From the NCBI GenBank assembly GCA_964649985.1, contig CAZYQX010000006.1, positions 11,839-75,838 on the forward strand: DNA of 64,000 bases, given 5' to 3'. The stretch comes from an uncultured Pseudomonadales bacterium. GTDB taxonomy: Bacteria > Pseudomonadota > Gammaproteobacteria > Pseudomonadales > CAZYQX01. The first letter of the stretch is position 1. The number at the start of each line of letters is the position of its first letter. Shown one piece after another: positions 12,054 to 61,896 of the stretch. The notes under the pieces are model-generated. The model saw only the letters and a list, made by a program, of their open reading frames with translations, was not told where the DNA came from and made no database searches. The translations under genes were made by a program, and so were the position numbers.

Positions 12054-12722
12054 TCAGGGCGCGTCGACATCGGACGAGTTAGCCACTGCACCCGGGGCAC
12101 CCGCCTTGTCGGACAAGCCCTGCAGCAACCACTCCAGCGGCGCCTGTAAGCGATCCCCCAAGGCGGCCTGCCCAAGCGCTGGCCAATGGGTGGCAACATG
12201 CGGAAACGCTGAGCAGACCCCGCCCTCAAACGCAGGCAAACGCCCGGCCAGGTGCCTTGAGAACGAAGCTTCCAGGCTGGCCGCGCCAATCACACACTGC
12301 ACCATGGCCAATTGAGCCTGCAACGCCAGAGACGGGCTGAAGCCATCCCGCATCATCACCACGATGCCCTGTTCCAATACCTGCAGTGCATGGGGGCCTA
12401 ACCTGACACGGCCAAACAAGGCAACCCAGCCAGGCTCGGCTTGCAGGGCCGTGTGCATGTGGCGTGCAACATGGCGCATCCACGCCTGCCAATGCATGTC
12501 TGAAGCAGGCAACACATCCGCCTGTTGAATAAAGCGATCCAACATGGCGGCTTGCAGGGTGTCCCAATCCTTCACGTGCCGATAGACGGCCATCGGCGTC
12601 ACGCCCAGGGCTGAGGCAATACGGCGTATGCTGAGCTGCTCAAATCCGTGTTCCCGCGCCAGTTGCAGACCGGTTTCGATCAACAGCTCAAGGGACAAGG
12701 CGCGCTTTACTGGCCGGGACAC
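12054..12722 (-). CDS. TetR/AcrR-family transcriptional regulator with TetR_C-like domain
   Basis: HTH LSIRRIASALGVTPMAVYRHV; start overlaps the P450 stop. Confidence 0.92.
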   Translation of the reverse strand: MSRPVKRALSLELLIETGLQLAREHGFEQLSIRRIASALGVTPMAVYRHVKDWDTLQAAMLDRFIQQADVLPASDMHWQAWMRHVARHMHTALQAEPGWVALFGRVRLGPHALQVLEQGIVVMMRDGFSPSLALQAQLAMVQCVIGAASLEASFSRHLAGRLPAFEGGVCSAFPHVATHWPALGQAALGDRLQAPLEWLLQGLSDKAGAPGAVANSSDVDAP

Positions 12723-14512
12723 GATGCTGCCTTCTCGCTATTGAGTGATGGCCCATTGTAAGCGCAGCAGGGTGCACACTCGAAGGCTAGCGGCATCGCC
12801 TTCAGGGTCCTGGCAAACATGCTGGCTTCAAAGGGCGTATCCCCCCGAATGGCAAAGCGGGTGGTACGCGCCAGCAGCCTAGTGATGACGATGCGGATCT
12901 CCATCCGCGCCAGCTCCCGGCCAATACACGCATGCACCCCGTGGCCAAAGGTGAGGTGTTTTTTTAGGTTGGGCCGGTCGATGTCGAACTCATCCGGCCG
13001 CTCCCAGAAACGCTCGTCGCGGTTGCCCGAGGCCCACATCAGGAATACCCGGCTGTTGGCGGGGATTTTCACCCCGTGCAGTACACTATCTCGCGTGCTG
13101 AGGCGAAAATGGCCTTGAAACGCCGCCTCGGTGCGGAAGACCTCTTCGATGAAATCTGGGATGCGCTCGGGCTCCCGGCGCAGCCGCTGCTCGATCTCAG
13201 GGTGCAATGCCAGCATGCGGATGGCATTGCCCATGGAGCTGGCCGAGGAGTCGGAGCCAGCGATCAGCAGCTGTAACATGATGGAGACGGCCCGGGCGTC
13301 GGTCATCACACTCTGCGGGTCTTTGGCCTGGCGCACCAACAAGCCGGTGAAGTTGTCGCCGGGTGCTCGCTGGGCCATCTGGTAGTGCCGCCACAGGTAG
13401 CGCATGAACTGGGCACTGGCACAGCCGGCGCGCAGCGACTCCGGCCCCCGCACCACGCCGCTGAGCTGGCGAATGCCAATCTCACACCAGCGTTTGATTT
13501 GGGGATAGTCCTGCTCCGGCAGCCCAAGCAGGCGAATGATCAGGCGCATCGGCAAACGCCAGGCGAAGTCCTGAATGAACTCCACCCTGCCCCGGGCCAG
13601 GAACTCGTCCATCATCTCGTCGCATAGCGCCACCACTTCTGGCTCCAGCGATTTAACGAAATGGGCATTGAAGCCGGTGTGGGCAATTTTGCGCTCTTGA
13701 CCATGAATGGGAGGATCTTGCAGCGCCAACACATCTGCGGGCAGGACGCCCCAAAGCCCCAGGCGCTCGGCCAAAGAGGGGCCAGTACGGTCCGGATCGC
13801 GGGGGCGGCCAGTAACCAGAATTTCGGTCAGATGCGACGAGAAACCCTCGGTATCCCTGGCCAGGGCGACGATATCCTCATAGCGGGAAATATTGAAGAA
13901 ATCCGTACCTGGCAGCTGGTACACAGGAAAACGATCCCGCAACAAGCGGTAGTAAGGGTAAGGGTCGGTGAAGTTATGCCTACTGAGGGGCTGAAAGTCC
14001 TCGGGCCGCTGAGGATCGAGAGGCGGAATGGGCGCTGCTCGGCGCGGTCGCGGCGGCGCGTGCAGCGCGCGCCAGGTCGCCCATCCCAGCAGCAGCTCGA
14101 TCGGTGCTAACAAGCCGTGCACCGACCACAGCGGCACGCCCAGGGCAAAGCCCAGCAGTCGACCGGCCGCCGAGCCCCAGGCCAGGGCGATCACCACCCA
14201 CAGCCCGGCGCGGCGCCCCTCGGGCTGACCGGCCAAGGCCACCAGCACCATGCCCAAAGCCAGCAGAAAACTGCCGTAGTAAGCGCGGATGTCGCCCAGC
14301 GCCACCGCCGACAACTGGCGGAAATCAAACACCTCGGCCATCGCTTGCGGGGCCAGCAGGAAAGCAGCCCCCGCCAACACACAGACCAACCCCACCCACA
14401 GCAACAGGCGAGACGGGCCGCGCACACCGATATACCAAGCCAGCAGCCGCATAGCCGCTTCAAAGGCCCAGGACGCCAGCCACCGGCGGGCATGAAACAG
14501 GAGATTAGCCAT
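12707..14512 (-). CDS. Cytochrome P450 with N-terminal DUF4345-like membrane domain
   Basis: Heme motif FGHGVHACIG (12920-12949), ExxR (EEVFR), I-helix LIAGSDSS; N-terminal about 150 aa has several hydrophobic helices and DIRAYYGSF...GRLLG. Confidence 0.88.
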   Translation of the reverse strand: MANLLFHARRWLASWAFEAAMRLLAWYIGVRGPSRLLLWVGLVCVLAGAAFLLAPQAMAEVFDFRQLSAVALGDIRAYYGSFLLALGMVLVALAGQPEGRRAGLWVVIALAWGSAAGRLLGFALGVPLWSVHGLLAPIELLLGWATWRALHAPPRPRRAAPIPPLDPQRPEDFQPLSRHNFTDPYPYYRLLRDRFPVYQLPGTDFFNISRYEDIVALARDTEGFSSHLTEILVTGRPRDPDRTGPSLAERLGLWGVLPADVLALQDPPIHGQERKIAHTGFNAHFVKSLEPEVVALCDEMMDEFLARGRVEFIQDFAWRLPMRLIIRLLGLPEQDYPQIKRWCEIGIRQLSGVVRGPESLRAGCASAQFMRYLWRHYQMAQRAPGDNFTGLLVRQAKDPQSVMTDARAVSIMLQLLIAGSDSSASSMGNAIRMLALHPEIEQRLRREPERIPDFIEEVFRTEAAFQGHFRLSTRDSVLHGVKIPANSRVFLMWASGNRDERFWERPDEFDIDRPNLKKHLTFGHGVHACIGRELARMEIRIVITRLLARTTRFAIRGDTPFEASMFARTLKAMPLAFECAPCCAYNGPSLNSEKAASCPGQ

Positions 14513-14524
14513 ACTCAGGCCTCG

Positions 14525-14562
14525 ATGTATACACCATATACACATGTATACACTGTATACAT
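14525..14562. promoter_or_regulatory. Tandem 19-bp palindromic operator, probably bound by the TetR protein
   Basis: ATGTATACA-C-TGTATACAT (14544-14562, perfect) abutting degenerate ATGTATACA-C-CATATACAC (14525-14543), 13 bp upstream of the P450 ATG. Confidence 0.75.
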
Positions 14563-14577
14563 TGTGCCGACAAGCCC

Positions 14578-16323
14578 TCAATGCCCGGCGCGCACCACCT
14601 CCTCCATTTGCTGGTAGCGCCAAGTGTGCGCATACCACCCCCCGGCAGCCAGCAATGCCTCGTGGCTACCACGCTCCAGCAGCTGGCCATGCTCCAGCAC
14701 CAGGATCAGATCCGCATCCTCCACGGCCGATAAGCGGTGACTGACGATGACCCGGGTCAGCCCCCGGCTGGCCTCGTTCAAGTGATCGAGAATGCGCCGT
14801 TCAGTGGCGGCATCCACCGCAGACAGGGCATCGTCCAGCAACAGCACTGGCGCCCCCATCATCAACGCCCGTGCGATCCCGACCCGTTGCTTCTGCCCAC
14901 CCGACAATGTCACGCCGCGCTCTCCTACACGGGTCCGATACCCCTCGGGGAAACGCCGGATATCATCATCCAGGGAGGCCAGCTGGGCACAGCGCTCCAC
15001 CTCGCTAGGCGACGCGCCCGGGCACCCCAGGGCGATATTCTCGGCAATGCTGGTGGAAAACAGGAAGGGGTCCTGAGGGACTACCGCCATCAGCCGGCGC
15101 AGGGCATCCAGGCGGTAGTGCTGCAATTGTTCACCCCCCAGATGAATCTGAACGCCGGGTGCCTCGTAGAGCCGCAGCAGCAGGTTCAGCAGGGTGGTCT
15201 TGCCGGCCCCCGTGGGCCCCACGATACCCAGGGTAGCCCCTGCCGGTAGCTGGAAGTGGATGTTCGCCAGTGCCGGGGGCAGCTCAGCGCGGTAGCGGAA
15301 ATCACTGATATCTACCCGCAGGCTGGCTTCGGCCAGCGTCTCCCGCTGCCCATCGTCCTGCATGGCAGGCGGCGTGTCCAACAACTCATTTATGCGGTTG
15401 TAAGCGGCGCTGCCGCGCTCCACCAGGCTCATCAGCCAGCCGTAGGCGAACATGGGCCAGATCAGTTGGGTCAGATACATGGTGAAGCTGGTGAGCTGGC
15501 CGATGCTGAGTTCGCCGCTATGGATCAGCCAGGCACCCCCGGCCACGCTGAGGCCAAAAGAGGCTCCCACGGTGAGCGAGATCACCGGGTCATAACGGGC
15601 ATCCACCCGCGCCACCGCCAGGTTGGCGCGCGAAGTGTCCGCCGCAATAGCGGCAAAGCGCTCGGCCGCCAGCGCCTCCTGGCCGAAGGACTTCACCGCC
15701 CGAATACCACCCACGTGTTCCTGCACACAGTCATTAAGCCGACTGAACTGCGCCTGAGCGCCATCGAAGGCCACGTGCAACTGCTCGCCAAACTGGTACA
15801 TATACCAGGCCATCACCGGCCAGGGCAGCAAAGCCAACAGCGTCAGTTTCCAGCTGAACACCAGGCTCATCACGCCTAGCACCAGGGCGCCGGTGAGCAC
15901 ACCGTCAAACAAGGTAAGCACCCCCTCCCCGGCCAATAATTCCACAGCGGTGACGTCATTAGTGGCCCTGGCCATCAGATCGCCGGTGCTCCAGCGTTGA
16001 TAGAACGCCGGGGACTGGCGCAGCAGTTGCTGATAGATGCGCTCCCGCAGCACTACCGCCAGCCGGTAAGACGTGCCATAGAGCACGCTGCGCCAACCGT
16101 AGCGCAACACATAGACCAGCACGGCGGTGGCGGCAATACCGCCGCTGGCCAAGGCCAGTTCACGCCCATCCAGCGTGCGGGCAGCCACGCCATCCACCAC
16201 GTAGCCCACCACCGCCGCGGGCACCAGATTGAGCACCGCCACACAGCTAAGCATGGCCACGGCAATGCCATAGGCGCGCCAGTGCTGGCGGAAATACCAA
16301 CTGAGGTTGAGAAAGGCTGTCAC
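14578..16323 (-). CDS. mdlA: Multidrug-type ABC transporter, fused permease/ATPase, MdlA-like
   Basis: TGDLMARATNDV, GEGVLTLFD, Walker A GPTGAGKT, LSGGQKQR, LLDDALSAVD. Confidence 0.88.
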   Translation of the reverse strand: MTAFLNLSWYFRQHWRAYGIAVAMLSCVAVLNLVPAAVVGYVVDGVAARTLDGRELALASGGIAATAVLVYVLRYGWRSVLYGTSYRLAVVLRERIYQQLLRQSPAFYQRWSTGDLMARATNDVTAVELLAGEGVLTLFDGVLTGALVLGVMSLVFSWKLTLLALLPWPVMAWYMYQFGEQLHVAFDGAQAQFSRLNDCVQEHVGGIRAVKSFGQEALAAERFAAIAADTSRANLAVARVDARYDPVISLTVGASFGLSVAGGAWLIHSGELSIGQLTSFTMYLTQLIWPMFAYGWLMSLVERGSAAYNRINELLDTPPAMQDDGQRETLAEASLRVDISDFRYRAELPPALANIHFQLPAGATLGIVGPTGAGKTTLLNLLLRLYEAPGVQIHLGGEQLQHYRLDALRRLMAVVPQDPFLFSTSIAENIALGCPGASPSEVERCAQLASLDDDIRRFPEGYRTRVGERGVTLSGGQKQRVGIARALMMGAPVLLLDDALSAVDAATERRILDHLNEASRGLTRVIVSHRLSAVEDADLILVLEHGQLLERGSHEALLAAGGWYAHTWRYQQMEEVVRAGH

Positions 16324-17757: not shown

Positions 17758-20447
<2,690 letters not shown>

Positions 20448-20451
<4 letters not shown>

Positions 20452-22778
20452 GCGCGCCCCCCGCCAAAGTGCGCCAAACATTCCCCCAGGGCGTGCAGCG
20501 TCACCGGCTTGACCAAGCACGCGTCCATGCCCACGGCCAGGCACCGCACGCGATAGTCCTCCGTGGCATGCGCCGTCAGTGCGATCACGGGCAGGTGTCG
20601 CCCCGATTCATGGGCCCGAATGCGCCGGGTGGCTTCCAAGCCATCCATAACCGGCATTTCACAATCCATCAATACCAGATCCAAGCACGGGTCCTGCTCC
20701 AGTTTCGCCAACGCCTCGGCACCATTGAGGGCACGTTCAGCTTCGTGCCCCAAGCGCTTCAAGAGGCCGCGTGTTACACACCAGTTGACATCGTTGTCCT
20801 CTGCCACCAACACGCGCAAGGATCTTGCCTCAACCACAGAGTCCCGGGGTGCTGCTTGGGGCACCTCGTTCGGGCCAACCACCGGCAGCAGAGGAATCCA
20901 GAAGTGGAAGTCACTCCCCTGCGCCATGGCACTGCTGACACCAATCTCCCCGCCCATCAAGGTCACCAATTGGCGGCAGATCGAGAGGCCCAAGCCCGAT
21001 CCCCCTAGGCGCCTCGCGCCGCTTGATTCCAACTGTTCGAAACGGCTGAATAATCTTGCCATGTCATCCGGGCGAATCCCCATACCGGAGTCGCGCACTG
21101 AAAAAATCAGCCGATCGTTCTCAACCGCCACGCTGAGGTGCACCTGTCCGCGTTCGGTAAACTTGAACGCATTGCTCACAAGATTCACCAGCACCTGCCT
21201 CAAGCGCGAGGCATCAGCCTCCACCACCGTAGGCACGCCAGGTGCCACCGACATCTCAAGCGGCACATCGCGCTCAAGGCTCTTGGTGTAAAAGATATCT
21301 CGCACATCTTTCAACAATCGCTCGATGCTCACGGAGTCACGCACCAGCTGTAATTGCCCCGCCTCAATGCGCGAATAATCGAGAATATCGTTCACCACGC
21401 CCATCAAGGCTTGGCCCGAGGTATTGATCATCCCCAAGTACTTGCGCTGGTCTTCATTCAAGCGCGAGTCATCCAGCAATTGAGCCATACCCAGCACCCC
21501 GTTCAGCGGCGTGCGAATTTCATGGCTCATGCGCGCCAAAAAATCGCTCTTGAACTGGCTGTTAAGCACGGCCCGCAAGGCCTGGCGCTCGCTCTCCTGA
21601 TCCTGCCGCCTAAGCAGCACGAAGCGGTAGCCGGCGCTCGCGGTAAATAACACCACATTGATGCCCTGCTGCATCAAGGACAGCGCCATCAAATGATCCA
21701 AGTCTGATCGGAAAAAGGCGCTGGGCAGCACTTGCAATACAAACACCGCCAAAGAAAACAAGATGGATACCGCAATAAGCATGCCCCCGATACTGACAAG
21801 CTGCCGCCAGAGTATCACCAGGCCAATGGCGGGGGTCAGAAGTAGCCCCCCGGTTAGTGCGATCAACACCAGGGTCTGCCACATTAACGGTATGAATGGC
21901 AGCAACGACAGAAAGACCGCCATGGCCATCACCTGCCCGTTCGCAGCGCGTTCAAGCCAGGGGACTCTGGTGCCGACATTCAGCATTTGAAGAACAAATT
22001 TCACGTAGGCCATGCTGGTCAGGCCAGACGCCAGGGCAATGACATACTGTTGAAAGGCAGTGGCCTCTGGCCACCAGCGGTAGCCGTAACCATAGCCAAT
22101 CGAAATCAGAAGGCCGATGCCCAACACGTAGAGTAGAAACCAGCCATAGAGGCTCTCCCGCACCACCAACCACACCAACGCAATTGCCACCGCCACGGAC
22201 AACAGTGCCCCGGTGAGCAGACCAAACCGGCCATCACGGCGTGCAACCTGATCGACAAAGTGGTTCTCACCAAACAACATCATTTTGAAACGCACTATCG
22301 CCCCGCCGGAAATGCGCAGCAGATAGTCGCGCTCCCGACCCTCAGCAAGCAGCAGGGGAATGGCAAAGTTTGGCCCCAATATTGGGCGCCGGTGGTATGG
22401 CAAGGTATCGCCCACCTCGGCTAGCCGCAGGTAGCCACGCTCCGATTTCTCAAAAAGCTCAATGCGATCAAGCAGAGGATTGCTGATCATCAAAACTGCA
22501 TGGCGATCCGAGCCCGGCGACGCACCCACCCGAAAATGCAGCCACACGGGGGCGCGCGTGAAGCCAAGGTAAACATTAATTGGATCAGCTGGAGAAAACG
22601 CACCTTGGGCATAGCGGGAGGCGGCCCCCTGAACATCCAGCTGCTCACGATCGACCAGGTAAGCGGCGCCGGGCAGCAGGCTCTGCGCCGCGCCCACCGT
22701 CAGCAACTCGGCACGTGTGCCGCCAGCAAATAAGGCACTGAGCGCCAAGAGACAAAGCCAACCAGCTCTGCTCAACAC
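20448..22778 (-). CDS. 7TM-DISM hybrid sensor kinase, copy 2 (start approximate)
   Basis: [20 protein letters not shown], 7TM region, [28 protein letters not shown]. Confidence 0.88.
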
Positions 22779-23108
22779 GCCGAAAGCCTCATTCGCTCGG
22801 CATATGTGGCAACAGCGTATCCCTGTATCACCCGTCCCCCCATCGCGACCCGCCACGCTGATGCAGAGCAGGTACTCACAACAGCATTTATTGGGCGCCG
22901 CTAAAAAGCGGCCCCCCCACAGAAAACACCACAAGACGCCAGAAACGCCGCTGACAGAGTAATGTGCTGACAGACACCCCGCGCATACACAGATCCATGC
23001 ACATACCGGGAAACGTCCAATAACCTATTGCCGCTTGTGGCTCAGCGCCAGATGTTCCCTAACATCCAAGCATAGCCCGAACATTCCTAGGCGCACGGGC
23101 CTATAGAT

Positions 23109-25439
23109 CTACGGTTCCCGCGCCACATGGTTCAACCACGCATAGCGATTCAAGCACGCCCAGAGCACCTCGAGTGTCACGGGCTTAACCAAGCATTCAT
23201 CCATCCCCACCGCCAGGCAGCGAAGCCGATAATCTTCCGTTGCATGTGCGGTTAGCGCGATTACAGGCAGGTGACCACTCAACTCTGCCGCGCGTATTCT
23301 GCGCGTGGCGTCCAGACCGTCCATCACCGGCATCTCGCAGTCCATGAGTACCAGATCCACCCGCGCATCCCCCTCCAACAGGCGCAAGGCTTCTGCACCA
23401 TCACAGGCACGTATGGCGGAATGCCCCAGCTTCTGTAACAAGCCACGCGTGACCAGCCAATTGATATCGTTATCCTCCGCCACCAGCACCCTCAGCCCAC
23501 CCACGACCTGGCGATCAGCGGCAAGCACCTCCGCCGCTTGCCCCCCAGCCGCTTGCGCTAGCACCAGAGGCACCCAGAAACTGAACGTACTCCCCGCGCC
23601 TAGCTGGCTACTTACGCCGATCTGCCCCCCCATTAACTCCACCAGCTGCCTGCAGATCGCCAATCCCAGCCCTGTGCCACCGAAACGACGCGCCGTCGAA
23701 GCATCTAACTGCTCAAAATGTTCAAACAGTTTGCGCTGGTTCTCCGGGCTGATGCCCATCCCGGTATCGGAAACGGCAAAGCACAAACGCCCGTTGTCCA
23801 CTGAAAGCCCAAGTGTGACCTGGCCTTGCTCGGTGTATTTGAAAGCGTTGCTCAGCAAGTTCACCAGCACTTGTCGCAACCGGTTCAGATCGCCCTCGAG
23901 CCACAGCGGCACATCAGTCGATCGCTCGATGAGCAAGCGCACGGGTTTTTCCTGGCTCTGGCTGAAGAAGAGCCGTCTCAGATCCTCCAGCAGCGCATCC
24001 ACCGAAAATGACTCGCGCACCAGATGCACACGACCACTTTCTATACTGGTGTAATCAGCGATATCGCTCACCACGTCCGCCAGCATCTGACCGGAACTAT
24101 TAATCATCTCCAAGTATTTGCGTTGCGTCGCATTCAATGGCGTGTCCCACAGCAATTGGGCCATACCCATCACACCATTCAAAGGGGTGCGAATTTCATG
24201 GCTCATCCGCGCCATGAAGTCACCTTTGATCTGGTGTTGCAGTACTGCCCGCAGGGCTTGTCGCTCACTCGCCACAGCCTGCTCGCGCATGGCCATGAAG
24301 CGATAGGCCAAGGTAATGGCAAACAACGCGATATTCAGTGAAAGCGCCAATTGAAACAGCAGCAACGTAAATTCAAGCCCAATCAGGGCATACACCCCAG
24401 CGGGCATCTGCAGCCAATTTAAGATTGACATAAGCAGGACTGAAGCGCCGAACAACCAGTGCTTCTCGCCCGAACGCTGTGCAGCACACCACCAGGCCCA
24501 CATCAGCGTGATGGCGATGGCCATACTATTGATCGCCACCGCCAGAAACGTCTGCAGCGCCAATGACATGAACGGCACCAACAGCAAAAACAACAACAGT
24601 AACCAACTCTCCACTTTCACCAACAGGTCAACCCGAGGAGCGCTCGCGGCGAGCCCGAGTACCACCCGCGCAAAGCGCAGATAAGAAATTCCGGATGCCG
24701 CCACCGCCAGAGAAATCGCCATCTGCTGAAAATCAGGTGAATCAGGCCACCAGCGATAGGCGTGGCCAAAGCCAATCAAGCCGGTGAGGTGCATTGAAAC
24801 CGCGTAGGCAAAAAACCATCCATACAACGCATCCCGTGCGAGCCCCCACGCTAACAGCGCCAACAGTGCCACACTCCAGACGATGCCACTCATGACGCCG
24901 CGCAAAATCTCCTGCCAATGCAGACGCTGCAGGTAGCCGGGCTCATCCGCCAGCAGAAGACCCAACCTGACCATGGATTCGCCTGACAGCTTCAAATACA
25001 TATGCGAGGCATCTGGCCCCGCCATGATGGGCAACACAAACCCGGGCGCAAGAATCGGGCGGTGCGCGTAAGGCAAGGTATCCCCCACCAGCCACAGTCG
25101 TTCGAAGCGCCCCCCGTGATCAACAAACAATTCAATGCGATCCAGCAGCGCATTGTTGATCACCAACAATCGCGTCTGAGACGCGCCGGCAGGCGGAATG
25201 CGGAAATACAACCAGACGGGGCCGCGGGTGAAACCCAGCTGCAGATAGCTCGCCGGTGTTGGCTTGAAGTGACCCTCGGCCTGAAGCCGAGCCACCTCAT
25301 CGACCTTCAGCCCCTTTAAGTCCTCATAGTACGACGCGGATGACAACACATCCTCAACCCGCCCAAGCGCCTCCGCGGCCCATGACGGGTAACAGATGAT
25401 GTAGAGCAACGGCCACAGGTACCACCTAGACCCCTTCAA
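23109..25439 (-). CDS. 7TM-DISM hybrid sensor kinase, copy 1 (start approximate)
   Basis: [20 protein letters not shown], 7TM region, [28 protein letters not shown]. Confidence 0.88.
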   Translation of the reverse strand: MKGSRWYLWPLLYIICYPSWAAEALGRVEDVLSSASYYEDLKGLKVDEVARLQAEGHFKPTPASYLQLGFTRGPVWLYFRIPPAGASQTRLLVINNALLDRIELFVDHGGRFERLWLVGDTLPYAHRPILAPGFVLPIMAGPDASHMYLKLSGESMVRLGLLLADEPGYLQRLHWQEILRGVMSGIVWSVALLALLAWGLARDALYGWFFAYAVSMHLTGLIGFGHAYRWWPDSPDFQQMAISLAVAASGISYLRFARVVLGLAASAPRVDLLVKVESWLLLLFLLLVPFMSLALQTFLAVAINSMAIAITLMWAWWCAAQRSGEKHWLFGASVLLMSILNWLQMPAGVYALIGLEFTLLLFQLALSLNIALFAITLAYRFMAMREQAVASERQALRAVLQHQIKGDFMARMSHEIRTPLNGVMGMAQLLWDTPLNATQRKYLEMINSSGQMLADVVSDIADYTSIESGRVHLVRESFSVDALLEDLRRLFFSQSQEKPVRLLIERSTDVPLWLEGDLNRLRQVLVNLLSNAFKYTEQGQVTLGLSVDNGRLCFAVSDTGMGISPENQRKLFEHFEQLDASTARRFGGTGLGLAICRQLVELMGGQIGVSSQLGAGSTFSFWVPLVLAQAAGGQAAEVLAADRQVVGGLRVLVAEDNDINWLVTRGLLQKLGHSAIRACDGAEALRLLEGDARVDLVLMDCEMPVMDGLDATRRIRAAELSGHLPVIALTAHATEDYRLRCLAVGMDECLVKPVTLEVLWACLNRYAWLNHVAREP

Positions 25440-25644
25440 AGCACCCCCCAGGCATGCATCCGAGCACCATATGCCGATGCTGCAGCTCAGCCACACGCGC
25501 TTCTAACACATTTATTCTAGCGCCGCCCAACAACACTGCCCGCACATCCTGCGAATGCGCAAATATCCCGCTAGAATTGCTGCAGCAGCGCCCCCATCTA
25601 GGCTAGGATGCTGCCCCCAGACCGTTAGCTCACGCAGGCCCGAC

Positions 25645-32592: not shown

Positions 32593-33093
32593 TCAACCGC
32601 CCCCGGCCTCGCCCTCCGCCAGCCGCACCAGCCCATCCCAACCACTGCTCTCCGCCACGGGCGACAGCGGTCGCCCGTCAGGCATGCAGATAGCGGGGGC
32701 GATCTCAACCAGCGGCTGCAACACAAAGTTGCGCACCAGCATCTGAGGGTGCGGCACGGTGAGCCTGGCGCTGTTGATGCACTGGTCACCATACAACAAC
32801 ACATCTAGATCGAGGGTGCGCGCGCCCCACCGCACCAGGCGCTCACGCCCCTGGCCATGCTCAATGCCTTGCAGAGCATCCAGTAGAGCTTCAGGTGCAA
32901 GGGAGGTATCCAGGCGCGCCACGGCATTCAGATAATCGGGTTGATCACCCGGCCCAATGGCGCGGCTGCGGTAGAAGGACGACACCGCTACAAGCCGGCA
33001 TTCAGGCAACACCGCCATAGCGTCTAGCGCCGCGCGCAGCTGCTGGGCGGGTTCCCCCAAATTGCCCCCCAGCCCGATATAGGCCGGAACCAC
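32593..33093 (-). CDS. folK: 2-amino-4-hydroxy-6-hydroxymethyldihydropteridine pyrophosphokinase
   Basis: AYIGLGGNLG, QPDYLNAV, RWGARTLDLD, LTVPHP. Confidence 0.96.
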   Translation of the reverse strand: MVPAYIGLGGNLGEPAQQLRAALDAMAVLPECRLVAVSSFYRSRAIGPGDQPDYLNAVARLDTSLAPEALLDALQGIEHGQGRERLVRWGARTLDLDVLLYGDQCINSARLTVPHPQMLVRNFVLQPLVEIAPAICMPDGRPLSPVAESSGWDGLVRLAEGEAGGG

Positions 33094-34499
33094 TAGGCTG
33101 GCCCGTTGCTATAGCGACGGTTGCGCCGCCGGGGCCGGCGCTTGCGAGCAGCGCCCTCACCACGTTCGGCATCCCGCGCCGCATGCATCAGCTGCTCGCG
33201 ATTTTCTGGCGCCCCGCGCTGGTACTCGGTCCACCACTTGCCGAGGCCACCGGTATTCTCACCGGCCGCTTCGCGCAGCAGCAGGAAATCATAGGCCGCA
33301 CGAAAGCGCGGGTGGGCAAACGTAGCCTCCGCACGTGCGCCCTGGCGGCGCGGCAAGCGCGGTTGCAGCTCCCAGATTTCCCGCAGCGGGATGGAGAAGC
33401 GCTTGGGAATGGTAACGAAGTCGCCCTGATCCAGCAGCACTTCGTGGGCCGCACGCTGGAAGGCCACAGCGGGTGCATCACCCTCGGCCTCGAAGCGCTT
33501 GCACAGGCGTTGCTGGGCAGGCCACAGCAGCGCGGCATACAGGAAGGCCGGGGTGACCGACTTGCCCTGGTGGATGCGCTCATCCGTGTTGCGCAGGGCC
33601 GCCTGGATAATGCCCAGTCCGTAAGGGTCGCCCTCGCGGATGGCCGCCTCGGTCATCGGGAACAACGGCTCAAACAGGCCGTATTGGCGCATCAGCGCAA
33701 AGGTTTCCACCCCGTGCCCGCACATCAACAGTTTGATCACCTCATCAAACATGCGTGCGGCGGCCACATCTTGCAGCAACTCAGCCAAACGGGGTATCGG
33801 CTCGGCGGTGGTGGGTGCCAGGGCAAAATCCAGCTTGGCGGCAAAGCGCACCGCCCGCAGCATCCGCACCGGGTCTTCACGGTAGCGCCGCTCGGGGTCA
33901 CCGATGATGCGCAACACGCGATTGCGCAGATCGTCCATGCCGTTGGCGAAATCGTGCACGGTGAAGTCCTTCACCGTGTAGTACAGCGCGTTGACGGTGA
34001 AATCGCGCCGGATGGCGTCTTCCTCCACCGTGCCATAAACGTTGTCGCGCAGCAGCATACCGCTCTCGGAAGCGGCGGCGGACTGGCCGCTCTTGCGGTC
34101 CTCGAACTCCTCAATCTCTTCCGCCGGGCCGTGATTGCCGCGAAAGGTGGTCACCTCGATGGTCTCAGCCCCACACATCACATGCACGATGCGAAAGCGC
34201 CGGCCGATGATGCGCGAGCGGCGGAACAACCCACGCACCTCTTCCGGGGTGGCGTTGGTGGCCACGTCGAAATCCTTGGGGTGTTTGCCCAACAGGAGGT
34301 CACGCACGCCACCGCCCACCAGATAGGCCTCGAAACCGCCTTTCTGCAGGCCGTAGAGCACATCCAGTGCGCCCCGGCTGATGTGCTTGCGGGAGATGGG
34401 GTGCTCGTCGCGCGACAGCACACGGCGCTGGGGCAACGGTTCGCTGCGACCACCGGAGAAAGGCAGGCGTTCGCTAAGATTTTTAAGCCATTTCAGCAT
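33093..34499 (-). CDS. pcnB: Poly(A) polymerase I
   Basis: LVGGGVRDLLLG, KDFDVAT, GRRFRIVHV, RRDFTVNAL, EDPVRMLRA, RFRAAYDFLLLR. Confidence 0.97.
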   Translation of the reverse strand: MLKWLKNLSERLPFSGGRSEPLPQRRVLSRDEHPISRKHISRGALDVLYGLQKGGFEAYLVGGGVRDLLLGKHPKDFDVATNATPEEVRGLFRRSRIIGRRFRIVHVMCGAETIEVTTFRGNHGPAEEIEEFEDRKSGQSAAASESGMLLRDNVYGTVEEDAIRRDFTVNALYYTVKDFTVHDFANGMDDLRNRVLRIIGDPERRYREDPVRMLRAVRFAAKLDFALAPTTAEPIPRLAELLQDVAAARMFDEVIKLLMCGHGVETFALMRQYGLFEPLFPMTEAAIREGDPYGLGIIQAALRNTDERIHQGKSVTPAFLYAALLWPAQQRLCKRFEAEGDAPAVAFQRAAHEVLLDQGDFVTIPKRFSIPLREIWELQPRLPRRQGARAEATFAHPRFRAAYDFLLLREAAGENTGGLGKWWTEYQRGAPENREQLMHAARDAERGEGAARKRRPRRRNRRYSNGPA

Positions 34500-34616
34500 G
34501 CGGCGCGACGAGGCATCCCTGGATCAGAGTGGTGACGGATTAAAATCCGCCCAAGTCTACCACAACGCCACCCCACACCGCATAGACCACCTACCGCGCA
34601 GGCCCAGGCCTGCGTC

Positions 34617-34813
34617 GAAAGACCGGGGGCGACCGCCCCCATCCATGCCTTGTGAGTTCTTCTTGTGCTGGAGAATCTTATTATTGTTGAGGTCGTTTTT
34701 ATTCTTTATTGTCGTTTTTGGCGGGTTATCAAGGAACCGCTTCTTCTTGTTTTGCTGTCAACCCGATTTTTATTCTTATTGGGCTGATGCGCTGTTATTT
34801 TTATGCTTGCGCG
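34617..34813 (-). ncRNA. CrcZ-like Hfq/Crc-sequestering small RNA (ends estimated)
   Basis: Six AANAANAA clusters (34657-64, 34678-88, 34696-706, 34741-51, 34767-80, 34795-802), sigma-54 promoter upstream, terminator downstream, directly upstream of pcnB. Confidence 0.78.
34625..34640 (-). terminator. Hairpin terminating the CrcZ-like RNA
   Basis: Minus strand GGGGGC-ggtc-GCCCCC then GGTCTTT; second hairpin CGCAGGC/GCCTGCG at 34597-34614. Confidence 0.55.
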
Positions 34814-34823
34814 AAATAATCAA

Positions 34824-34840
34824 AGCACGCCCCATGCCAA
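34824..34840 (-). promoter_or_regulatory. Sigma-54 (-24/-12) promoter
   Basis: Minus strand TTGGCATGGGGCGTGCT: GG and GC separated by exactly 10 nt. Confidence 0.8.
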
Positions 34841-34915
34841 CACACCCCACCCCCTGAAAGATCAGCACCTTAGCGTTTGTCAAGTTAGATTTTAGCAGCC
34901 GGCAGCACGCACAAC

Positions 34916-34964
34916 CGTTACGCCAGGCCACGCCCGGGTAACACCCCTCCGGGGAGAGCGTTAC
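34916..34964 (-). promoter_or_regulatory. CbrB-type upstream activating sequences
   Basis: Minus strand GTAACG-N15-TGTTAC-N16-GTAACG, about -103 to -151 from the predicted +1. Confidence 0.65.
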
Positions 34965-34981
34965 CCCCCGTATTCACAAAC

Positions 34982-35013
34982 AAAAAAAGGGCGGCACAGC
35001 AAGCCCACCCTTT
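34982..35013 (-). terminator. Rho-independent terminator after porin paralog 2
   Basis: Minus strand AAAGGGTGGGC-loop-GCCGCCCTTTTTTT. Confidence 0.75.
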
Positions 35014-35074: not shown

Positions 35075-36481
35075 CTAGAACACAGAGTCCACACCGAAGG
35101 AGACGATTTGGTTACTATCACCCAGCTCTGCGCGAGCTTGATCCACCCCCGTTACCCCGGGGTAGGCGTCAAACACACCCAGGGTGCCATTCATGTCGTA
35201 GTAATAGGTGGATTCAAGCTTCAGGGCCACACTATCCAAAAGCTCGTAGCGCATGCCCAGCGTGATGGACTTCGATTCCTGCATGACCTCCATACCAGCG
35301 CCCGCCATACCACTCATCAGATCGCGCTTGGAAAAACCCGCCTGCGAGAGCATGCCGCCTGCCAGCCCATCATAAAAATCGTAAGCCCGATCTTCGTCAT
35401 CCTCACCTGACGTGAGCACCGCAAAGCTGGCATAGGGCATGAACTTCCCGACGCGGTAGCCCAGGGTTGCATATGCACTGGTGCCACCAACCCAAAAAGT
35501 ATCGTCATCAGCCTGCACATCCACCACTTCGGTCAGCGCCAACCACTGGCCATCGTCATAGCGCATCCCCAACGAAGCGTAGCCAAAGCCTACCGGCACT
35601 TGCTCACCCAGCCCCGGCATGTCGAACACCACCTCAGGCACGCCACTGTAAGACGCCCTCAGCGTCCACGCCCCCACGCTCGAGGTCAGCGCCATCGCCC
35701 ACAGATCTCGCACCTGGATACCCAAGCCTTGCACGGTTTCATCCATGGTGCCGACCCCAAACTGAACCTCGTGGCGCCACCCCCCCGAAGTGAAGGCATA
35801 GAGGGTGTCGACACCGCTGTAATTATTCAAACCGACCAGGTAGGACTCCATGGGAGGACGTACCCAGGGATAGGTGTACCCCACATCCATGGACTCCGAA
35901 TACATATAGAAGGGAGCACGCAAACGCCCTGCGCGTACCATCCAGCCATCAGCTACCTTGAAACGAAGAAAAGCCCACTCGGCGTCTATAGCGTAGTCTT
36001 CGTAGCCGTTGGCAGTGAGCTGTAACACCGCATCCACACTGTCGTTGACCCTGTAATCGAACTGCACACCCGCCATGGTATCGGAGCGGAACTGCTCATC
36101 ATCATCAAGTCCGATGGCTGAGAAATCGACATTTTTATCCGCATTCACCACATAGGCCGACATGAAGCCATGCACCTGAAGCTTTTCTTTCTGCTCTTCG
36201 AGCGTGCGCCTGACCAGCTCGTCGCGCTTCTTGGACTTCTTATCGACCTCAGTGAGCGCCGTCTCCAGCGCCGCGACTCGCTGCGTCACCGTGGAAGACG
36301 AGTGAGGCGCGCTCTGTGTCTGCAGCAGATCGAGTTCAGACTGCAGCGCACGCACCTCCTGCTGATGGCGCGCCGCCATCTTTTGCATCTCGACCATTAA
36401 CTCATCCACAGTTAAGGCCACCGCCGGCATTGCCGCCGCCCCCAACACCACCCCAAACACCATCTGTTTTGGCCGGATCAT
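35075..36481 (-). CDS. Outer-membrane beta-barrel (porin-like) protein with N-terminal coiled coil, paralog 2
   Basis: Signal peptide, heptad-like TVDELMVEMQKM, amphipathic strands, C-terminal SFGVDSVF; collinear with 37106-38683. Confidence 0.75.
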   Translation of the reverse strand: MIRPKQMVFGVVLGAAAMPAVALTVDELMVEMQKMAARHQQEVRALQSELDLLQTQSAPHSSSTVTQRVAALETALTEVDKKSKKRDELVRRTLEEQKEKLQVHGFMSAYVVNADKNVDFSAIGLDDDEQFRSDTMAGVQFDYRVNDSVDAVLQLTANGYEDYAIDAEWAFLRFKVADGWMVRAGRLRAPFYMYSESMDVGYTYPWVRPPMESYLVGLNNYSGVDTLYAFTSGGWRHEVQFGVGTMDETVQGLGIQVRDLWAMALTSSVGAWTLRASYSGVPEVVFDMPGLGEQVPVGFGYASLGMRYDDGQWLALTEVVDVQADDDTFWVGGTSAYATLGYRVGKFMPYASFAVLTSGEDDEDRAYDFYDGLAGGMLSQAGFSKRDLMSGMAGAGMEVMQESKSITLGMRYELLDSVALKLESTYYYDMNGTLGVFDAYPGVTGVDQARAELGDSNQIVSFGVDSVF

Positions 36482-36618
36482 GCTCATTCCTTTTCCCTGC
36501 ATGGAAGCCGCGCACCTAGCGGGCGGGCATTTAATTCAGTATAGCCAGCCCGCGCGCCAAATCAATTTAGAACCAACATTATCTTTTGTCGAGATCAGCC
36601 CGGTAACGTACCCGAAAC

Positions 36619-36672: not shown

Positions 36673-37092
36673 CTAAGGTACTTTCAACAGCACCTTAACT
36701 GAAGCATCCACCGACCCGGCATCCACATAGCCGATCGCGCCCGGCGTGGAGGCCACAGCGGCCTTCACTTCAGCACTATCCGCCACCGCTTTGGGCGGCT
36801 TACCCTTGCCGGTGAAAATTACCTGGGACCAGTAAGCCTTCAGCTGAGAGGCATTTTTCTGTGCCACCTTGGTGTAGAACTCGTCCCGCACCTCGGAGCC
36901 TTCCTCCTGATCGATCACGGTCACCTTGGAGCCGTCAGACAGGGAAGAAGACTTGCCCAGGAAGATATTGGCCGCTTCCTGAGCAGTCAGGGCCGAAGCC
37001 CCGGAGGCCGGATTGACGATCACCGCCACCTCGGCATTTGCAATACCTGCTGCCAGAAGACCGGCCGCCAGAGCAATACGTCGCTTCATCAT
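36673..37092 (-). CDS. Small exported periplasmic-binding-protein-like protein (PstS/PBP-like family)
   Basis: Signal peptide then AEVAVIVNP, NIFLGK, YWSQVIFTGKGKPP, PGAIGYV, a motif set typical of the porin-associated small PBP-like family. Confidence 0.75.
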   Translation of the reverse strand: MMKRRIALAAGLLAAGIANAEVAVIVNPASGASALTAQEAANIFLGKSSSLSDGSKVTVIDQEEGSEVRDEFYTKVAQKNASQLKAYWSQVIFTGKGKPPKAVADSAEVKAAVASTPGAIGYVDAGSVDASVKVLLKVP

Positions 37093-37105: not shown

Positions 37106-38683
37106 TTAGAACACCGAGTCTACGCCGAAAGACACGATCTGGTTGCTGTCGCCCAGTTCCTCACGCGTTTGATCATAGTCACCCGTGCTGAAGACGCCCT
37201 TTGTGCCATTGAAATCATAGGCATAGGTGGATTCAAGCTTAAGTGCCACATTTTCCAACACATCGTAGCGAATGCCCAGCGTGATGGATTTTTGCTCTTG
37301 CATAATCTCAAGACCTGGAAGAGTCTGGCCTAAACCAGCCACATACAACCCATTGTTGAAATCAGCCTTGGTAGCCGTCGCCGCAGATGCGTCATATGCT
37401 GCCGCTGCCAAATTTCCAGCTGCATCCAAAACGGCGTTTCGAGCGGCGGTCGCTGCCGCAACTCCCCCACCGATGTTTGCGGCATATTGCGCATCCGCCA
37501 GGGCCAGGGTACCAGCATCATTGCGGGCAGCATCAATCACACCAGCACGAGTAGCGCCCTGGTAGAAATCAAACGCCTTGTCTTCATCATCTTCACCCGT
37601 CATGGTCACGGCATAACTGGCGTAAGGCATAAATTTGCCTATGCGGTAACCCAAGGTGAAGTACGCGTTAGTGTTGCCCAAAATCGGGCTAGCATCGTCC
37701 ACGCCAAAATCCACCACCTCGGCAATCGCCAGCCACTGACCGTCGTCATAGCGACCACCCAGAGAGGCGTAGTAGGTGGAGACCGGGTCATATTCGTTCA
37801 GCTCCAGAGACGGCAGCAGGGTGTAGGAACCACGCAGCGTCCAGGGGCCGACACTAGAGGTCATCGACATACCCCAACGATCACGCACCTTCACAGTAAT
37901 GCCCTGAGCGTCTTCATCCATGGTGCCAACATAGAACTGTACGTCGTGGCGCCAATCACCCGTGTTGAAGGAATAGATAGTGTCCACGCCGTCATAGTTG
38001 CCCAGACCGACCACATAGGTCTCCATCGGCGGGCGCACCCAGGGGTAGGTGTAACCTACGTCCATGGACTCGGAGTACATATAGGTGGGCGAGCGCAGGC
38101 GGCCAGTGCGCACCATCCAGTTGTCCTGCAGCTTGAAGCGCAGGAAGGCCCACTCGGCGTCGATATCGTAGTTTTCGTAGCCGTTGGAGGTCAGCTGCAG
38201 CACCGCGTCCACGGTGTCGTTGACCTTGTAGTCGAACTGCACACCGGCCATGGTATCGGAGCGGAACTGCTCGTTGTCTTCGACACCAGTGTTGGAGAAG
38301 TCGACGTTTTTATCTGAATTGACGGCATAAGCCGACATGAAGCCGTGTACCTGGAGCTTCTCTTTCTGCTCTTCAACGGTGCGCTTGACCATATCGTCGC
38401 GCTTCTTGGACTTCTTGTCGACGTCAGCGACCTTCTTCTCCAGCTCGTCCAGGCGCTTGCTAACGGTGGGGGCTGGCGCTTCTTCGGCCTCGGCAACCGG
38501 GGCGGCCTTGGTTTGAGCGCGCTTGAGCTGATTGATCTGGGACTTCAGCTGCTTGAGCTCCTGCTCATGGCGCTGATTCATTTTCTGAATCTCAACCATC
38601 AGCTCGTCTACGGTGGCGGCGGTGGCCGGCATAGCAGTCACTGCCAAGGCAGCACCACATGCGATGTGTCGCAGGCTTTTCAC
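37106..38683 (-). CDS. Outer-membrane beta-barrel (porin-like) protein with N-terminal coiled coil, paralog 1
   Basis: GAGGA RBS before GTG; signal peptide; TVDELMVEIQKM coiled coil; C-terminal SFGVDSVF. Confidence 0.75.
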   Translation of the reverse strand: MKSLRHIACGAALAVTAMPATAATVDELMVEIQKMNQRHEQELKQLKSQINQLKRAQTKAAPVAEAEEAPAPTVSKRLDELEKKVADVDKKSKKRDDMVKRTVEEQKEKLQVHGFMSAYAVNSDKNVDFSNTGVEDNEQFRSDTMAGVQFDYKVNDTVDAVLQLTSNGYENYDIDAEWAFLRFKLQDNWMVRTGRLRSPTYMYSESMDVGYTYPWVRPPMETYVVGLGNYDGVDTIYSFNTGDWRHDVQFYVGTMDEDAQGITVKVRDRWGMSMTSSVGPWTLRGSYTLLPSLELNEYDPVSTYYASLGGRYDDGQWLAIAEVVDFGVDDASPILGNTNAYFTLGYRIGKFMPYASYAVTMTGEDDEDKAFDFYQGATRAGVIDAARNDAGTLALADAQYAANIGGGVAAATAARNAVLDAAGNLAAAAYDASAATATKADFNNGLYVAGLGQTLPGLEIMQEQKSITLGIRYDVLENVALKLESTYAYDFNGTKGVFSTGDYDQTREELGDSNQIVSFGVDSVF

Positions 38684-38847
38684 GTTGTAATCCTCATGTT
38701 CCCCAGTTGGAGCCCCGCTGCGCCATTCCGGCATCTAACATGGGCCTCTTGAGAGACTAGCAGGCATTTTTGGTCGCGCCAGTCATTTCGGCACATTTTT
38801 AGCGCCCATCATGTAAAATCGCACAAAAGACTCGCAACCCAATGATT

Positions 38848-60938: not shown

Positions 60939-61896
60939 CCCGAGACCACAAAAGCAGACATTACATCATATCGTATAAAAAATGGCACGCCTACTTTACT
61001 GCTCTTGGGCGAATACTCAGCAGATGACTGGCGGAAATATTGCCGACCAAGGTGCTATCTCATTGATATTAATCATATATTTAACTGCGCCCTCCAATAA
61101 CAAAATCGCTCCCCAGCTATATGCATAATGGCAACCAGCAAGACTCAACCGCACACGTCAAGCACGCAGCCCCCTATGAAATACCCATAAATACAACCTA
61201 TCTTAATTTAAAATAATCTCCGCTATAATTAAAATATACGCACCTACAGCCAATTTAATAATGCGATTTTCGTTACATTTTCATATGTTATAGTTGACTA
61301 TAATAACCGAATAGCGCAGCGGATATTACAAGCCATAACACTGCACTAATATTATCACTGAGGCTTTTTCAATGATTTATCCAGGGGTTGCGGCGACTGC
61401 GGTTTCGTCTTGATACAGCGACCGGCTTTAGGATTGACGTGCACAATACCACTTGTTGTAGCACAAGGAGCTTGGCCATTGCTAACCCTTACCTTCAGAA
61501 ACCGGAAATTGGCTTTATCGCATCTATGCATGCTAGGCAGTTGCGAAGGCTGGCGCTGACGGATAACTGATATCTGCCGTGCCCCCAGATCACATCCCTA
61601 CCCTTATCGATTGCGAATAGCACATCGATATTTCAATGCAAATCTACCGAAATGAATGCTCATTCGGTCATCTTGATCTATGCCACCCCATCGTCGCGAA
61701 GTTTGCTCAGATGTTCTGCATTGCAGGGCATGCTCTGCGCCACGCGGCGTACGCCCACACAGGGAAGCTGGTGGCGCACGCGAAATATGTCAACTGGAGA
61801 GCTATAAACACCTGATCGATCAAACCGCCAAGCATTTCGTCACGTGCTGGTGGACGCCAATGAGGCACTGGGCGCCAGAGCCCTTGCTCAGTGTGT

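Follow-up and report, generated by a model that had tools for sequence, protein, structure and literature searches.

A small RNA gene appears to lie on the minus strand of a 64,000-nucleotide (nt) stretch of DNA from an uncultured Pseudomonadales bacterium (contig CAZYQX010000006.1, positions 11,839 to 75,838; referred to here, at its full length, as the window), immediately upstream of pcnB, the gene for poly(A) polymerase I. Based on its A-rich motifs, its promoter and upstream box, its synteny with pcnB, its relatives in other genomes, and the graded scores obtained with the Rfam CrcZ model, we consider it likely that this locus is a non-coding RNA gene of about 190-200 nt and the positional orthologue of crcZ in a deep-branching, GC-rich, marine-type gammaproteobacterium. 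The RNA itself is very probably a short and highly diverged counterpart of CrcZ that the current Rfam model does not cover. In Pseudomonas, carbon catabolite repression has its output switch in the CrcZ-type RNAs. In Pseudomonas and Azotobacter, titration of Hfq/Crc by CrcZ relieves the translational repression of catabolic mRNAs (PMC8871633). An earlier note on this DNA had proposed a diverged CrcZ-like RNA in a non-Pseudomonas lineage, and the promoter, the box, the synteny and the relatives described below speak for that proposal, while membership in the Rfam CrcZ family did not hold.

The locus is housed in the 575 nt that separate pcnB from a porin-like gene (35075-36502, minus strand), and its GC content drops to 38-44% compared to 55-70% in the flanks, in line with the description of the surrounding DNA as GC-rich in the earlier note. 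The reading frame that begins 118 nt downstream of the RNA matches Pfam PolyA_pol, so that the position just upstream of pcnB was correctly called; folK, a deoxynucleoside-kinase-like gene, panB and panC come after it, in an order similar to that of Pseudomonas. The Hfq hexamer binds sequence of the (ARN)n type through its distal face. When both strands of the window were searched, AANAANAA was matched 51 times, and 11 of these matches, overlapping one another, fell on the minus strand within the 146 nt between 34657 and 34802, compared to at most three in the densest other 200-nt stretch of either strand. Composition is insufficient to account for this count, because shuffles of the 197-nt region itself (41% A) contained 0.77 +/- 1.0 matches, and none of 5000 reached 11. 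The 11 matches group as six (ARN)n runs of 4, 5, 4, 4, 4 and 3 triplets, which are the six A-rich clusters reported previously; the two clusters that had been singled out as near-identical are indeed so (AATAAGAATAAAAA at 34780-34767 and AATAAAGAATAAAAA at 34710-34696).

To put these features in context, we relied on sequences retrieved through PcnB. An identical PcnB was found in the Logan assembly L081 (run SRR10083294), whose aligned intergenic DNA is also identical to that of the window, and a PcnB with 84% identity was found through a protein database in a sequence from an ENA metagenome (L162). The other PcnB relatives are at most 63% identical (best 55-63%, and 59% at best in the scans of genome and metagenome collections), hence the organism represents an isolated lineage, whose nearest named PcnB relatives are in Halomonas, Marinobacter, Mangrovitalea, Motiliproteus and the Oleiphilaceae. 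L162 retains the upstream box, the promoter, both loop-presenting hairpins, and the GC-rich terminator hairpin with its tail; its RNA, predicted at 169 nt, contains five A-rich runs, and the core CAAGAAG of site 3 is kept. Upstream of the RNA, both the window and L162 carry a PBP_like_2 gene and porin-like genes, and no regulator gene.

About 12 nt before the RNA region there is a sigma-54 (RpoN) -24/-12 consensus, which was missing from the earlier note along with the upstream box and the first hairpin discussed here, and which is the single match to TGGCAY-N6-TGCW on either strand of the window. This promoter is conserved in L162 as TGGCACGCCGCCTGCC, and is found at the same place in 72 related loci. 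Transcription would start at about 34813, 12 nt past the GC of the -12 element, a position that coincides with the upper coordinate proposed earlier for the RNA, and a scan for sigma-70 promoters returned none near the RNA locus. A box reading TGTTAC-N16-GTAACG begins 104 nt upstream of the -24 element and provides the sole match to GTTAC-N10-20-GTAAC in 64 kb (34942-34917; 0.12 expected). In about 45 of the related loci, a GTTAC-N14-17-GTAAC box is located 97-123 nt upstream of the -24 element, and L162, where a GTTAC-N16-GTAAC box lies 102 nt upstream, is one of them. The CbrB site of Pseudomonas has been defined as TGTTAC-N12-14-GTAACA-N15-19-GTAACA (PMC8871633). The window box resembles it in having both half-sites, and its placement relative to the promoter is as expected. 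An extra GGTAAC is also present at 34960-34965 (minus strand), 16 nt upstream of the TGTTAC half-site, with which it forms an inverted pair; it is not conserved in L162, and may have arisen by chance or serve as a third subsite for the activator.

Folding of the predicted RNA yielded a minimum free energy of -41.3 kcal/mol (z = -1.8 versus shuffles), with all six A-rich runs unpaired, either in hairpin loops or in single-stranded linkers. In hairpin 1, which displays site 1 in its loop, the stem reads GCAC/GUGC in L162, meaning that a G-C pair has become A-U through changes on both sides with pairing kept, and the loop sequence is conserved. Run 2 occupies the loop of the CAGCCC/GGGTTG stem, as the earlier note had anticipated. 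The L162 equivalent of this second hairpin has a UACCGC/GCGGUG stem and a loop (ACAAUAAAUAUAAAAAC; AAUAAAUAUAAAAA) that resembles that of the window; counting from the loop-closing pair, two pairs have changed on both sides and one on one side. This last comparison was read by eye directly from the sequences; the MAFFT alignment sets these stems out of register, and RNAalifold run on the two-sequence MAFFT alignment of the window and L162 confirmed hairpin 1 alone. The GCGGTT/AACCCGC hairpin that had been said to separate two clusters is found in the fold as GCGG-N12-CCGC between sites 3 and 4, with a shorter GC hairpin at the equivalent position of L162. The GC hairpin thought to close the region is likewise in the fold, with a 6-bp GC stem; its counterpart in L162 is CGGGGGC-UACAU-GCCCCCG followed by UGUCUUUCG, and the tail GUCUUUCG is common to both. 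A second hairpin (34613-34598) lies beyond it. The 3' end of the RNA would fall just past the closing GC hairpin and the UCUUUC tail, and in the relatives strong canonical terminators are found at the equivalent point, past the A-rich block. The only call made by the terminator scan overlaps the sigma-54 promoter, and was discarded as spurious.

Among 136 loci that were fetched with PcnB from genome and metagenome collections and had at least 700 nt of upstream flank, 72 carry both an A-rich cluster and a sigma-54 consensus before pcnB. In these loci 12-45 nt separate the consensus from a cluster of AANAANAA motifs, just upstream of pcnB and on the same strand. The module is seen in Oleiphilaceae, Motiliproteus, Zhongshania, Spongiibacter, Microbulbifer, Litoricola, Bermanella, Halomonas, Litorivivens and many uncultured lineages, and the promoter and A-rich block also precede pcnB in Marinobacter; it was not found in the Alteromonas, Paraglaciecola, Pseudoalteromonas, Aliagarivorans, Vibrio, Plesiomonas, Xanthomonas and sulfur-oxidiser loci that were examined. 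An open reading frame (ORF) for a sigma-54 activator (GAFTGA) lies directly upstream in 61 of the 62 of these 72 loci that could be judged, and among the 44 loci with neither cluster nor consensus it is absent from 37, present in one, and was not judged in six. Seven of the upstream ORFs were found by Pfam to contain Response_reg and Sigma54_activat domains, and the HisKA/HATPase end of a kinase was found before the one scanned for it. A CbrB-like regulator upstream of the RNA was noted in L001, L014, L015, L018, L020, L034 and L072. The gene order in Pseudomonas is dksA-gluQ-cbrX-cbrA-cbrB-crcZ-pcnB. A published review confirms the cbrX-cbrA-cbrB-crcZ part of it (PMC8871633). Marinobacter halodurans and Motiliproteus coralliicola show this order: a gluQ-like gene comes first (with dksA before it in Motiliproteus), a hydrophobic, cbrX-like ORF of 56-58 amino acids (aa) overlaps the start of a gene for a CbrA-like, multi-TM kinase of 981-992 aa (whose residues 1-485 contain 11 or more hydrophobic segments and precede PAS, HisKA and HATPase domains), and a sigma-54 response regulator gene is separated from pcnB-folK-panB-panC by a gap of 840-960 nt that contains the RNA. 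In relatives with clear terminators the predicted lengths of the RNA cluster at about 105 nt (Zhongshania type, 3-5 runs) and about 275 nt (Litoricola type, 4-8 runs), and the window RNA, with about 197 nt and six runs, is within this size range. Outside the A-rich tracts, the RNAs of these relatives could not be aligned with that of the window. In a Spongiibacteraceae metagenome-assembled genome (L052:2395-2815) and in a metagenome contig (L084:2292-2712), a second sigma-54 consensus and A-rich block follow about 330-400 nt past the first, which suggests tandem duplicate small RNA (sRNA) genes.

Scans at the gathering threshold with Rfam, whose CrcZ model (RF01675) has a length of 398 positions and a threshold of 95 bits, returned no match in the whole window and 20 related loci; the window RNA is about half as long as that model, as the earlier note had remarked of its length relative to the Pseudomonas RNA. 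Scanning by E-value, the sole match in the region was PhrS (10.4 bits, E 3.4), which we attribute to chance. The CrcZ model does match four of the related loci, all below 95 bits and all on the predicted RNA, at the correct place and strand: Marinobacter (L163; 58.9 bits, E 5.9e-13, over the full model, 1-398), L072 (33.1 bits, E 4.5e-5, model positions 280-375), L027 (24 bits, E 0.02, full length) and L001 (21.8 bits, E 0.089, full length). Similarity to Pseudomonas CrcZ thus declines gradually with distance, and the window RNA lies beyond the reach of the model. A profile was also built from 29 relatives, from -135 to +140 around the promoter and leaving out the window, L081 and L162. Searched against both strands of the 64 kb, it recognized just 34841-34749 (E 3.1e-7) and 34720-34618 (E 7e-4), and it also matched L162 at the correct place (E 3e-8) and none of 25 loci lacking the module. 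A profile of the promoter alone picked out the correct promoter with a non-significant E of 1, and one of the upstream site alone had no match. Because profiles restricted in this way fail, the signal comes from the promoter together with the A-rich 5' part of the RNA.

We acknowledge that several of our results weigh against the assignment to CrcZ. The search with the CrcZ model, which the earlier note had named as a check, gave no match at E <= 10 in 34450-35000. The spacer of the box, N16, exceeds the published N12-14 by 2 nt. The genes cbrAB, crc, hfq and likewise rpoN were not found within the 64-kb window, and the lone locus of 62 without an adjacent activator is the window's own sequence (L081). 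The profile of upstream site plus promoter misses the locus and has a spurious match at 61029 (E 0.03), and the A-rich content is of low complexity and may inflate profile scores. Covariation is limited to a handful of pairs, as there is just one close relative. Lastly, the closing hairpin was not called by the terminator scan and is followed by just three consecutive U's, so that read-through into pcnB is possible.

This last point bears on an alternative in which the A-rich region would be a long regulated 5' leader of pcnB, with the sigma-54 promoter driving pcnB and Hfq controlling its translation or stability. The weak U tract of the uncalled closing hairpin would fit such a leader, as would the adjacency of RNA and pcnB, which persists even where cbrAB has moved away. 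We regard this explanation as improbable, however, as canonical strong terminators follow the A-rich block in the relatives, the stretch from the hairpin to pcnB shows little conservation (52% identity in aligned columns), the equivalent block of Pseudomonas is an independent RNA (PMC8871633), and a conserved extended -10-like element separates the hairpin from pcnB. This element, TG-G-TAGACT, lies in a block (GTGTGGTAGACTTGGGCG) that is kept in the window and L162 within the otherwise poorly conserved spacer, and is probably pcnB's own promoter. At 34554-34564 (minus strand), in the spacer between sRNA and pcnB, the window reads TGTGGTAGACT and L162 TGTGCTAGACT, and Zhongshania has tgtgctagaat in the same place.

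A second alternative, to which we also assign little probability, would be an Hfq-binding RNA of the same descent with a changed role, either as a Crc-independent sponge or under a different sigma-54 activator, cbrAB being unlinked or lost. It draws on the position of the window as the only judged locus of 62 without an adjacent activator, on the N16 rather than N12-14 spacing of the box, and on an RNA of half the Pseudomonas length with no Rfam match. L162 has no activator among its called genes either, although its upstream flank is too short to be included in the activator count. Relatives that keep cbrB adjacent, however, have the promoter, the box and the spacing between the two in common with the window, which speaks for an unchanged regulator whose gene lies elsewhere in the genome. 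Considerably less probable is that the locus is a relic of an ancestral crcZ, decaying and without function, that stayed in place when cbrAB was separated from pcnB. Its reduced length compared to Pseudomonas CrcZ, the missing Rfam match and the lack of an adjacent activator gene could be seen as signs of decay, but all six (ARN)n runs are intact, as are the box and the promoter, both of which L162 shares; changes on both sides of the stems preserve pairing, and some relatives of only about 105 nt look functional. Finally, the plus-strand ORF at 34381-34857 (158 aa), whose translation the earlier note had held out as a refutation and which is uninterrupted in L162 as in the window (39% identity between the products by BLASTP), is hardly credible as a real gene and was rejected for want of any sign of coding selection or Pfam match: stop codons are rare in the T-rich sequence opposite A-rich tracts, the similarity is restricted to where the ORF runs antisense to pcnB coding sequence or to the conserved RNA loops, with the middle unaligned, alignment gaps of 6, 4, 8, 1 and 2 nt disrupt the frame locally, and substitutions have no codon-position bias (27/64, 26/63, 29/64).

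On the reading that we prefer, that of a CrcZ orthologue, a CbrB-type sigma-54 activator would bind TGTTAC-N16-GTAACG about 100 nt upstream and fire the promoter once the preferred carbon source is exhausted. The transcript would then present its six (ARN)3-5 tracts to the distal face of Hfq, some in the loops of two hairpins and the others in single-stranded linkers, and, by titrating Hfq (with Crc, if present), would free catabolic mRNAs from translational repression. The binding of Hfq/Crc, the identity of the activator, transcription and the physiological role are all predicted here from sequence. The coordinates of the features discussed are collected in the table below.

Table. Features of the predicted RNA locus and of pcnB in the window, with the genomic contexts of two relatives
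Feature	Position	Strand	Basis
Putative activator-binding site TGTTAC-N16-GTAACG (CbrB-box-like)	34916..34943	-	pattern match
Sigma-54 (RpoN) -24/-12 consensus TGGCATGGGGCGTGCT (TGGCAT-N5-GTGCT)	34824..34839	-	pattern match
Predicted sRNA, about 197 nt	34617..34813	-	both ends predicted
Hairpin 1, GCGC/GCGC stem, 16-nt loop with AUAAAAAUAA (site 1)	34789..34812	-	fold
A-rich run 1 AAAAAUAACAGC	start 34802	-	(ARN)n run
Hairpin 2, UCAGCCC/GGGUUGA, 16-nt loop AAUAAGAAUAAAAAUC (site 2, five ARN triplets)	34758..34787	-	fold
A-rich run 2 AAUAAGAAUAAAAAU	start 34780	-	(ARN)n run
A-rich run 3 AACAAGAAGAAG	34740..34751	-	single-stranded in fold
Small hairpin GCGG-N12-CCGC between sites 3 and 4	34721..34740	-	fold
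Single-stranded A-rich tract, sites 4-6	34656..34720	-	motif scan and fold
A-rich run 4 AAGAAUAAAAAC	start 34706	-	(ARN)n run
A-rich run 5 AACAAUAAUAAG	start 34688	-	(ARN)n run
A-rich run 6 AAGAAGAAC	start 34664	-	(ARN)n run
Closing hairpin GGGGGC-GGUC-GCCCCC (34640-34625) then GGUCUUUCG	34616..34640	-	fold; presumed terminator
Extended -10-like element TG-G-TAGACT	34554..34562	-	conserved block
pcnB, poly(A) polymerase I	33093..34499	-	Pfam PolyA_pol, PolyA_pol_RNAbd, PolyA_pol_arg_C
Marinobacter halodurans context	L163:1008-5537
Motiliproteus coralliicola context	L164:1-5663

Other features of the window were recorded during this work. A terminator that precedes the RNA (CCCTTTTTTTGTTT) is conserved in the window and L162. 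The porin-like gene next to the RNA locus encodes one of two putative outer-membrane proteins (35075-36502 and 37106-38734, minus strand), paralogues with 57% identity that flank a small PBP_like_2 protein (36673-37092); both have a coiled-coil-like N-terminal part, the shared end SNQIVSFGVDSVF, and no Pfam or NCBIfam match. L162 is without an outer-membrane paralogue beside the sRNA, hence the window copy may be a recent duplication. Farther upstream of the sRNA, where relatives carry cbrAB, a large exopolysaccharide-type cluster spans 39803-60938 (minus strand) and includes a Polysacc_synt_2 protein, a sugar transferase, several glycosyltransferases, an ABC transporter, a PEP-CTERM-type asparagine synthase-like amidotransferase, and several ORFs without family match. 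Three consecutive hybrid histidine kinases are encoded at 17758-25496 (minus strand), the first two of which (17758-20544 and 20448-22934) have Pfam 7TMR-DISM sensor domains; the third (23109-25496) was scanned against NCBIfam alone. At 12707-14638 (minus strand), a cytochrome P450 ORF of 643 aa, with about 220 N-terminal residues outside the P450 match, sits between two genes for SmdA/SmdB-type ABC exporters and beside a TetR-like regulator.

The element is of an already known kind, and it is the window copy that is new, very divergent, and missed by Rfam-based annotation. Like CrcZ of Pseudomonas and Azotobacter (RF01675), the window RNA is directly upstream of pcnB-folK-panB-panC, has a sigma-54 promoter and a TGTTAC...GTAAC upstream site, carries multiple unpaired AANAANAA or (ARN)n tracts with a GC hairpin at the end, and is tied to the Rfam model through the intermediate lineages, namely Marinobacter at 58.9 bits and others at 22-33 bits. 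Unlike CrcZ, it is half as long and unmatched by that model, cbrA and cbrB are not adjacent to it, with porin-like and periplasmic-binding-protein-like genes upstream instead, its box has the longer spacer and its presumed terminator the weak U tract, and its binding of Hfq/Crc is a prediction. The paralogous, Hfq/Crc-titrating sRNAs CrcY and CrcX are found at genomic positions other than that of crcZ, whereas the window RNA occupies the crcZ position beside pcnB, and no second RNA copy was seen in the window. It shares with CrcY (P. putida, Azotobacter) and CrcX (P. syringae) the arrangement of A-rich repeats behind a CbrB/sigma-54 promoter (PMC8871633). The pcnB-upstream RNAs from Marinobacter to the Oleiphilaceae have the promoter, the position of the box, the A-rich tracts and the downstream genes in common with the window, but keep adjacent cbrA/cbrB-like genes.

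A 2022 review considered the CbrAB system and the crcZ synteny to be unique to the Pseudomonadaceae, with descriptions from Pseudomonas and Azotobacter alone (PMC8871633). The occurrence of a cbrX-like ORF, a CbrA-like kinase and a CbrB-like regulator outside the Pseudomonadaceae contradicts this statement. In the open literature we found no report on CrcZ or CbrB for Marinobacter, Halomonas, Alcanivorax or similar genera, and a wider distribution of the module appears not to have been described previously, even though it is unsurprising phylogenetically because these genera are relatives of Pseudomonas. For Acinetobacter, the sole report found draws an analogy between CrcZ and another RNA, sRNA99 of Acinetobacter baumannii, which is Hfq-associated and contains A-rich AAN motifs (PMC12802169). 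It resembles the window RNA in its A-rich motifs, but has three of them; neither pcnB nor a sigma-54 promoter is connected with it in the passage that makes the comparison, and our data contain nothing that would point to common descent of the two RNAs.

The wider group that carries the module appears to comprise Marinobacter, Halomonas, Motiliproteus, Bermanella, the Oleiphilaceae, Zhongshania/Spongiibacter, Microbulbifer and Litoricola, within which the RNA appears to evolve fast, from about 105 to about 400 nt. We lean slightly toward a scenario in which the module made of cbrX-cbrA-cbrB, a CrcZ-type RNA and pcnB is ancestral to this wider group of marine gammaproteobacteria, with the window as a minimal version whose link to cbrAB was lost. 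That the link to pcnB was kept while that to cbrAB was lost suggests that the sponge RNA and poly(A) polymerase may be functionally connected. The window and the 72 related loci indicate that the switch operated by CrcZ-type RNAs would be present in many ecologically important marine heterotrophs. Among them are hydrocarbon degraders such as Marinobacter, Zhongshania and Oleiphilaceae. In none of these heterotrophs is the RNA picked up by Rfam-based annotation, and the family could be annotated with a new covariance model. Substrate preference in these marine organisms thereby becomes testable through a defined RNA and its promoter.

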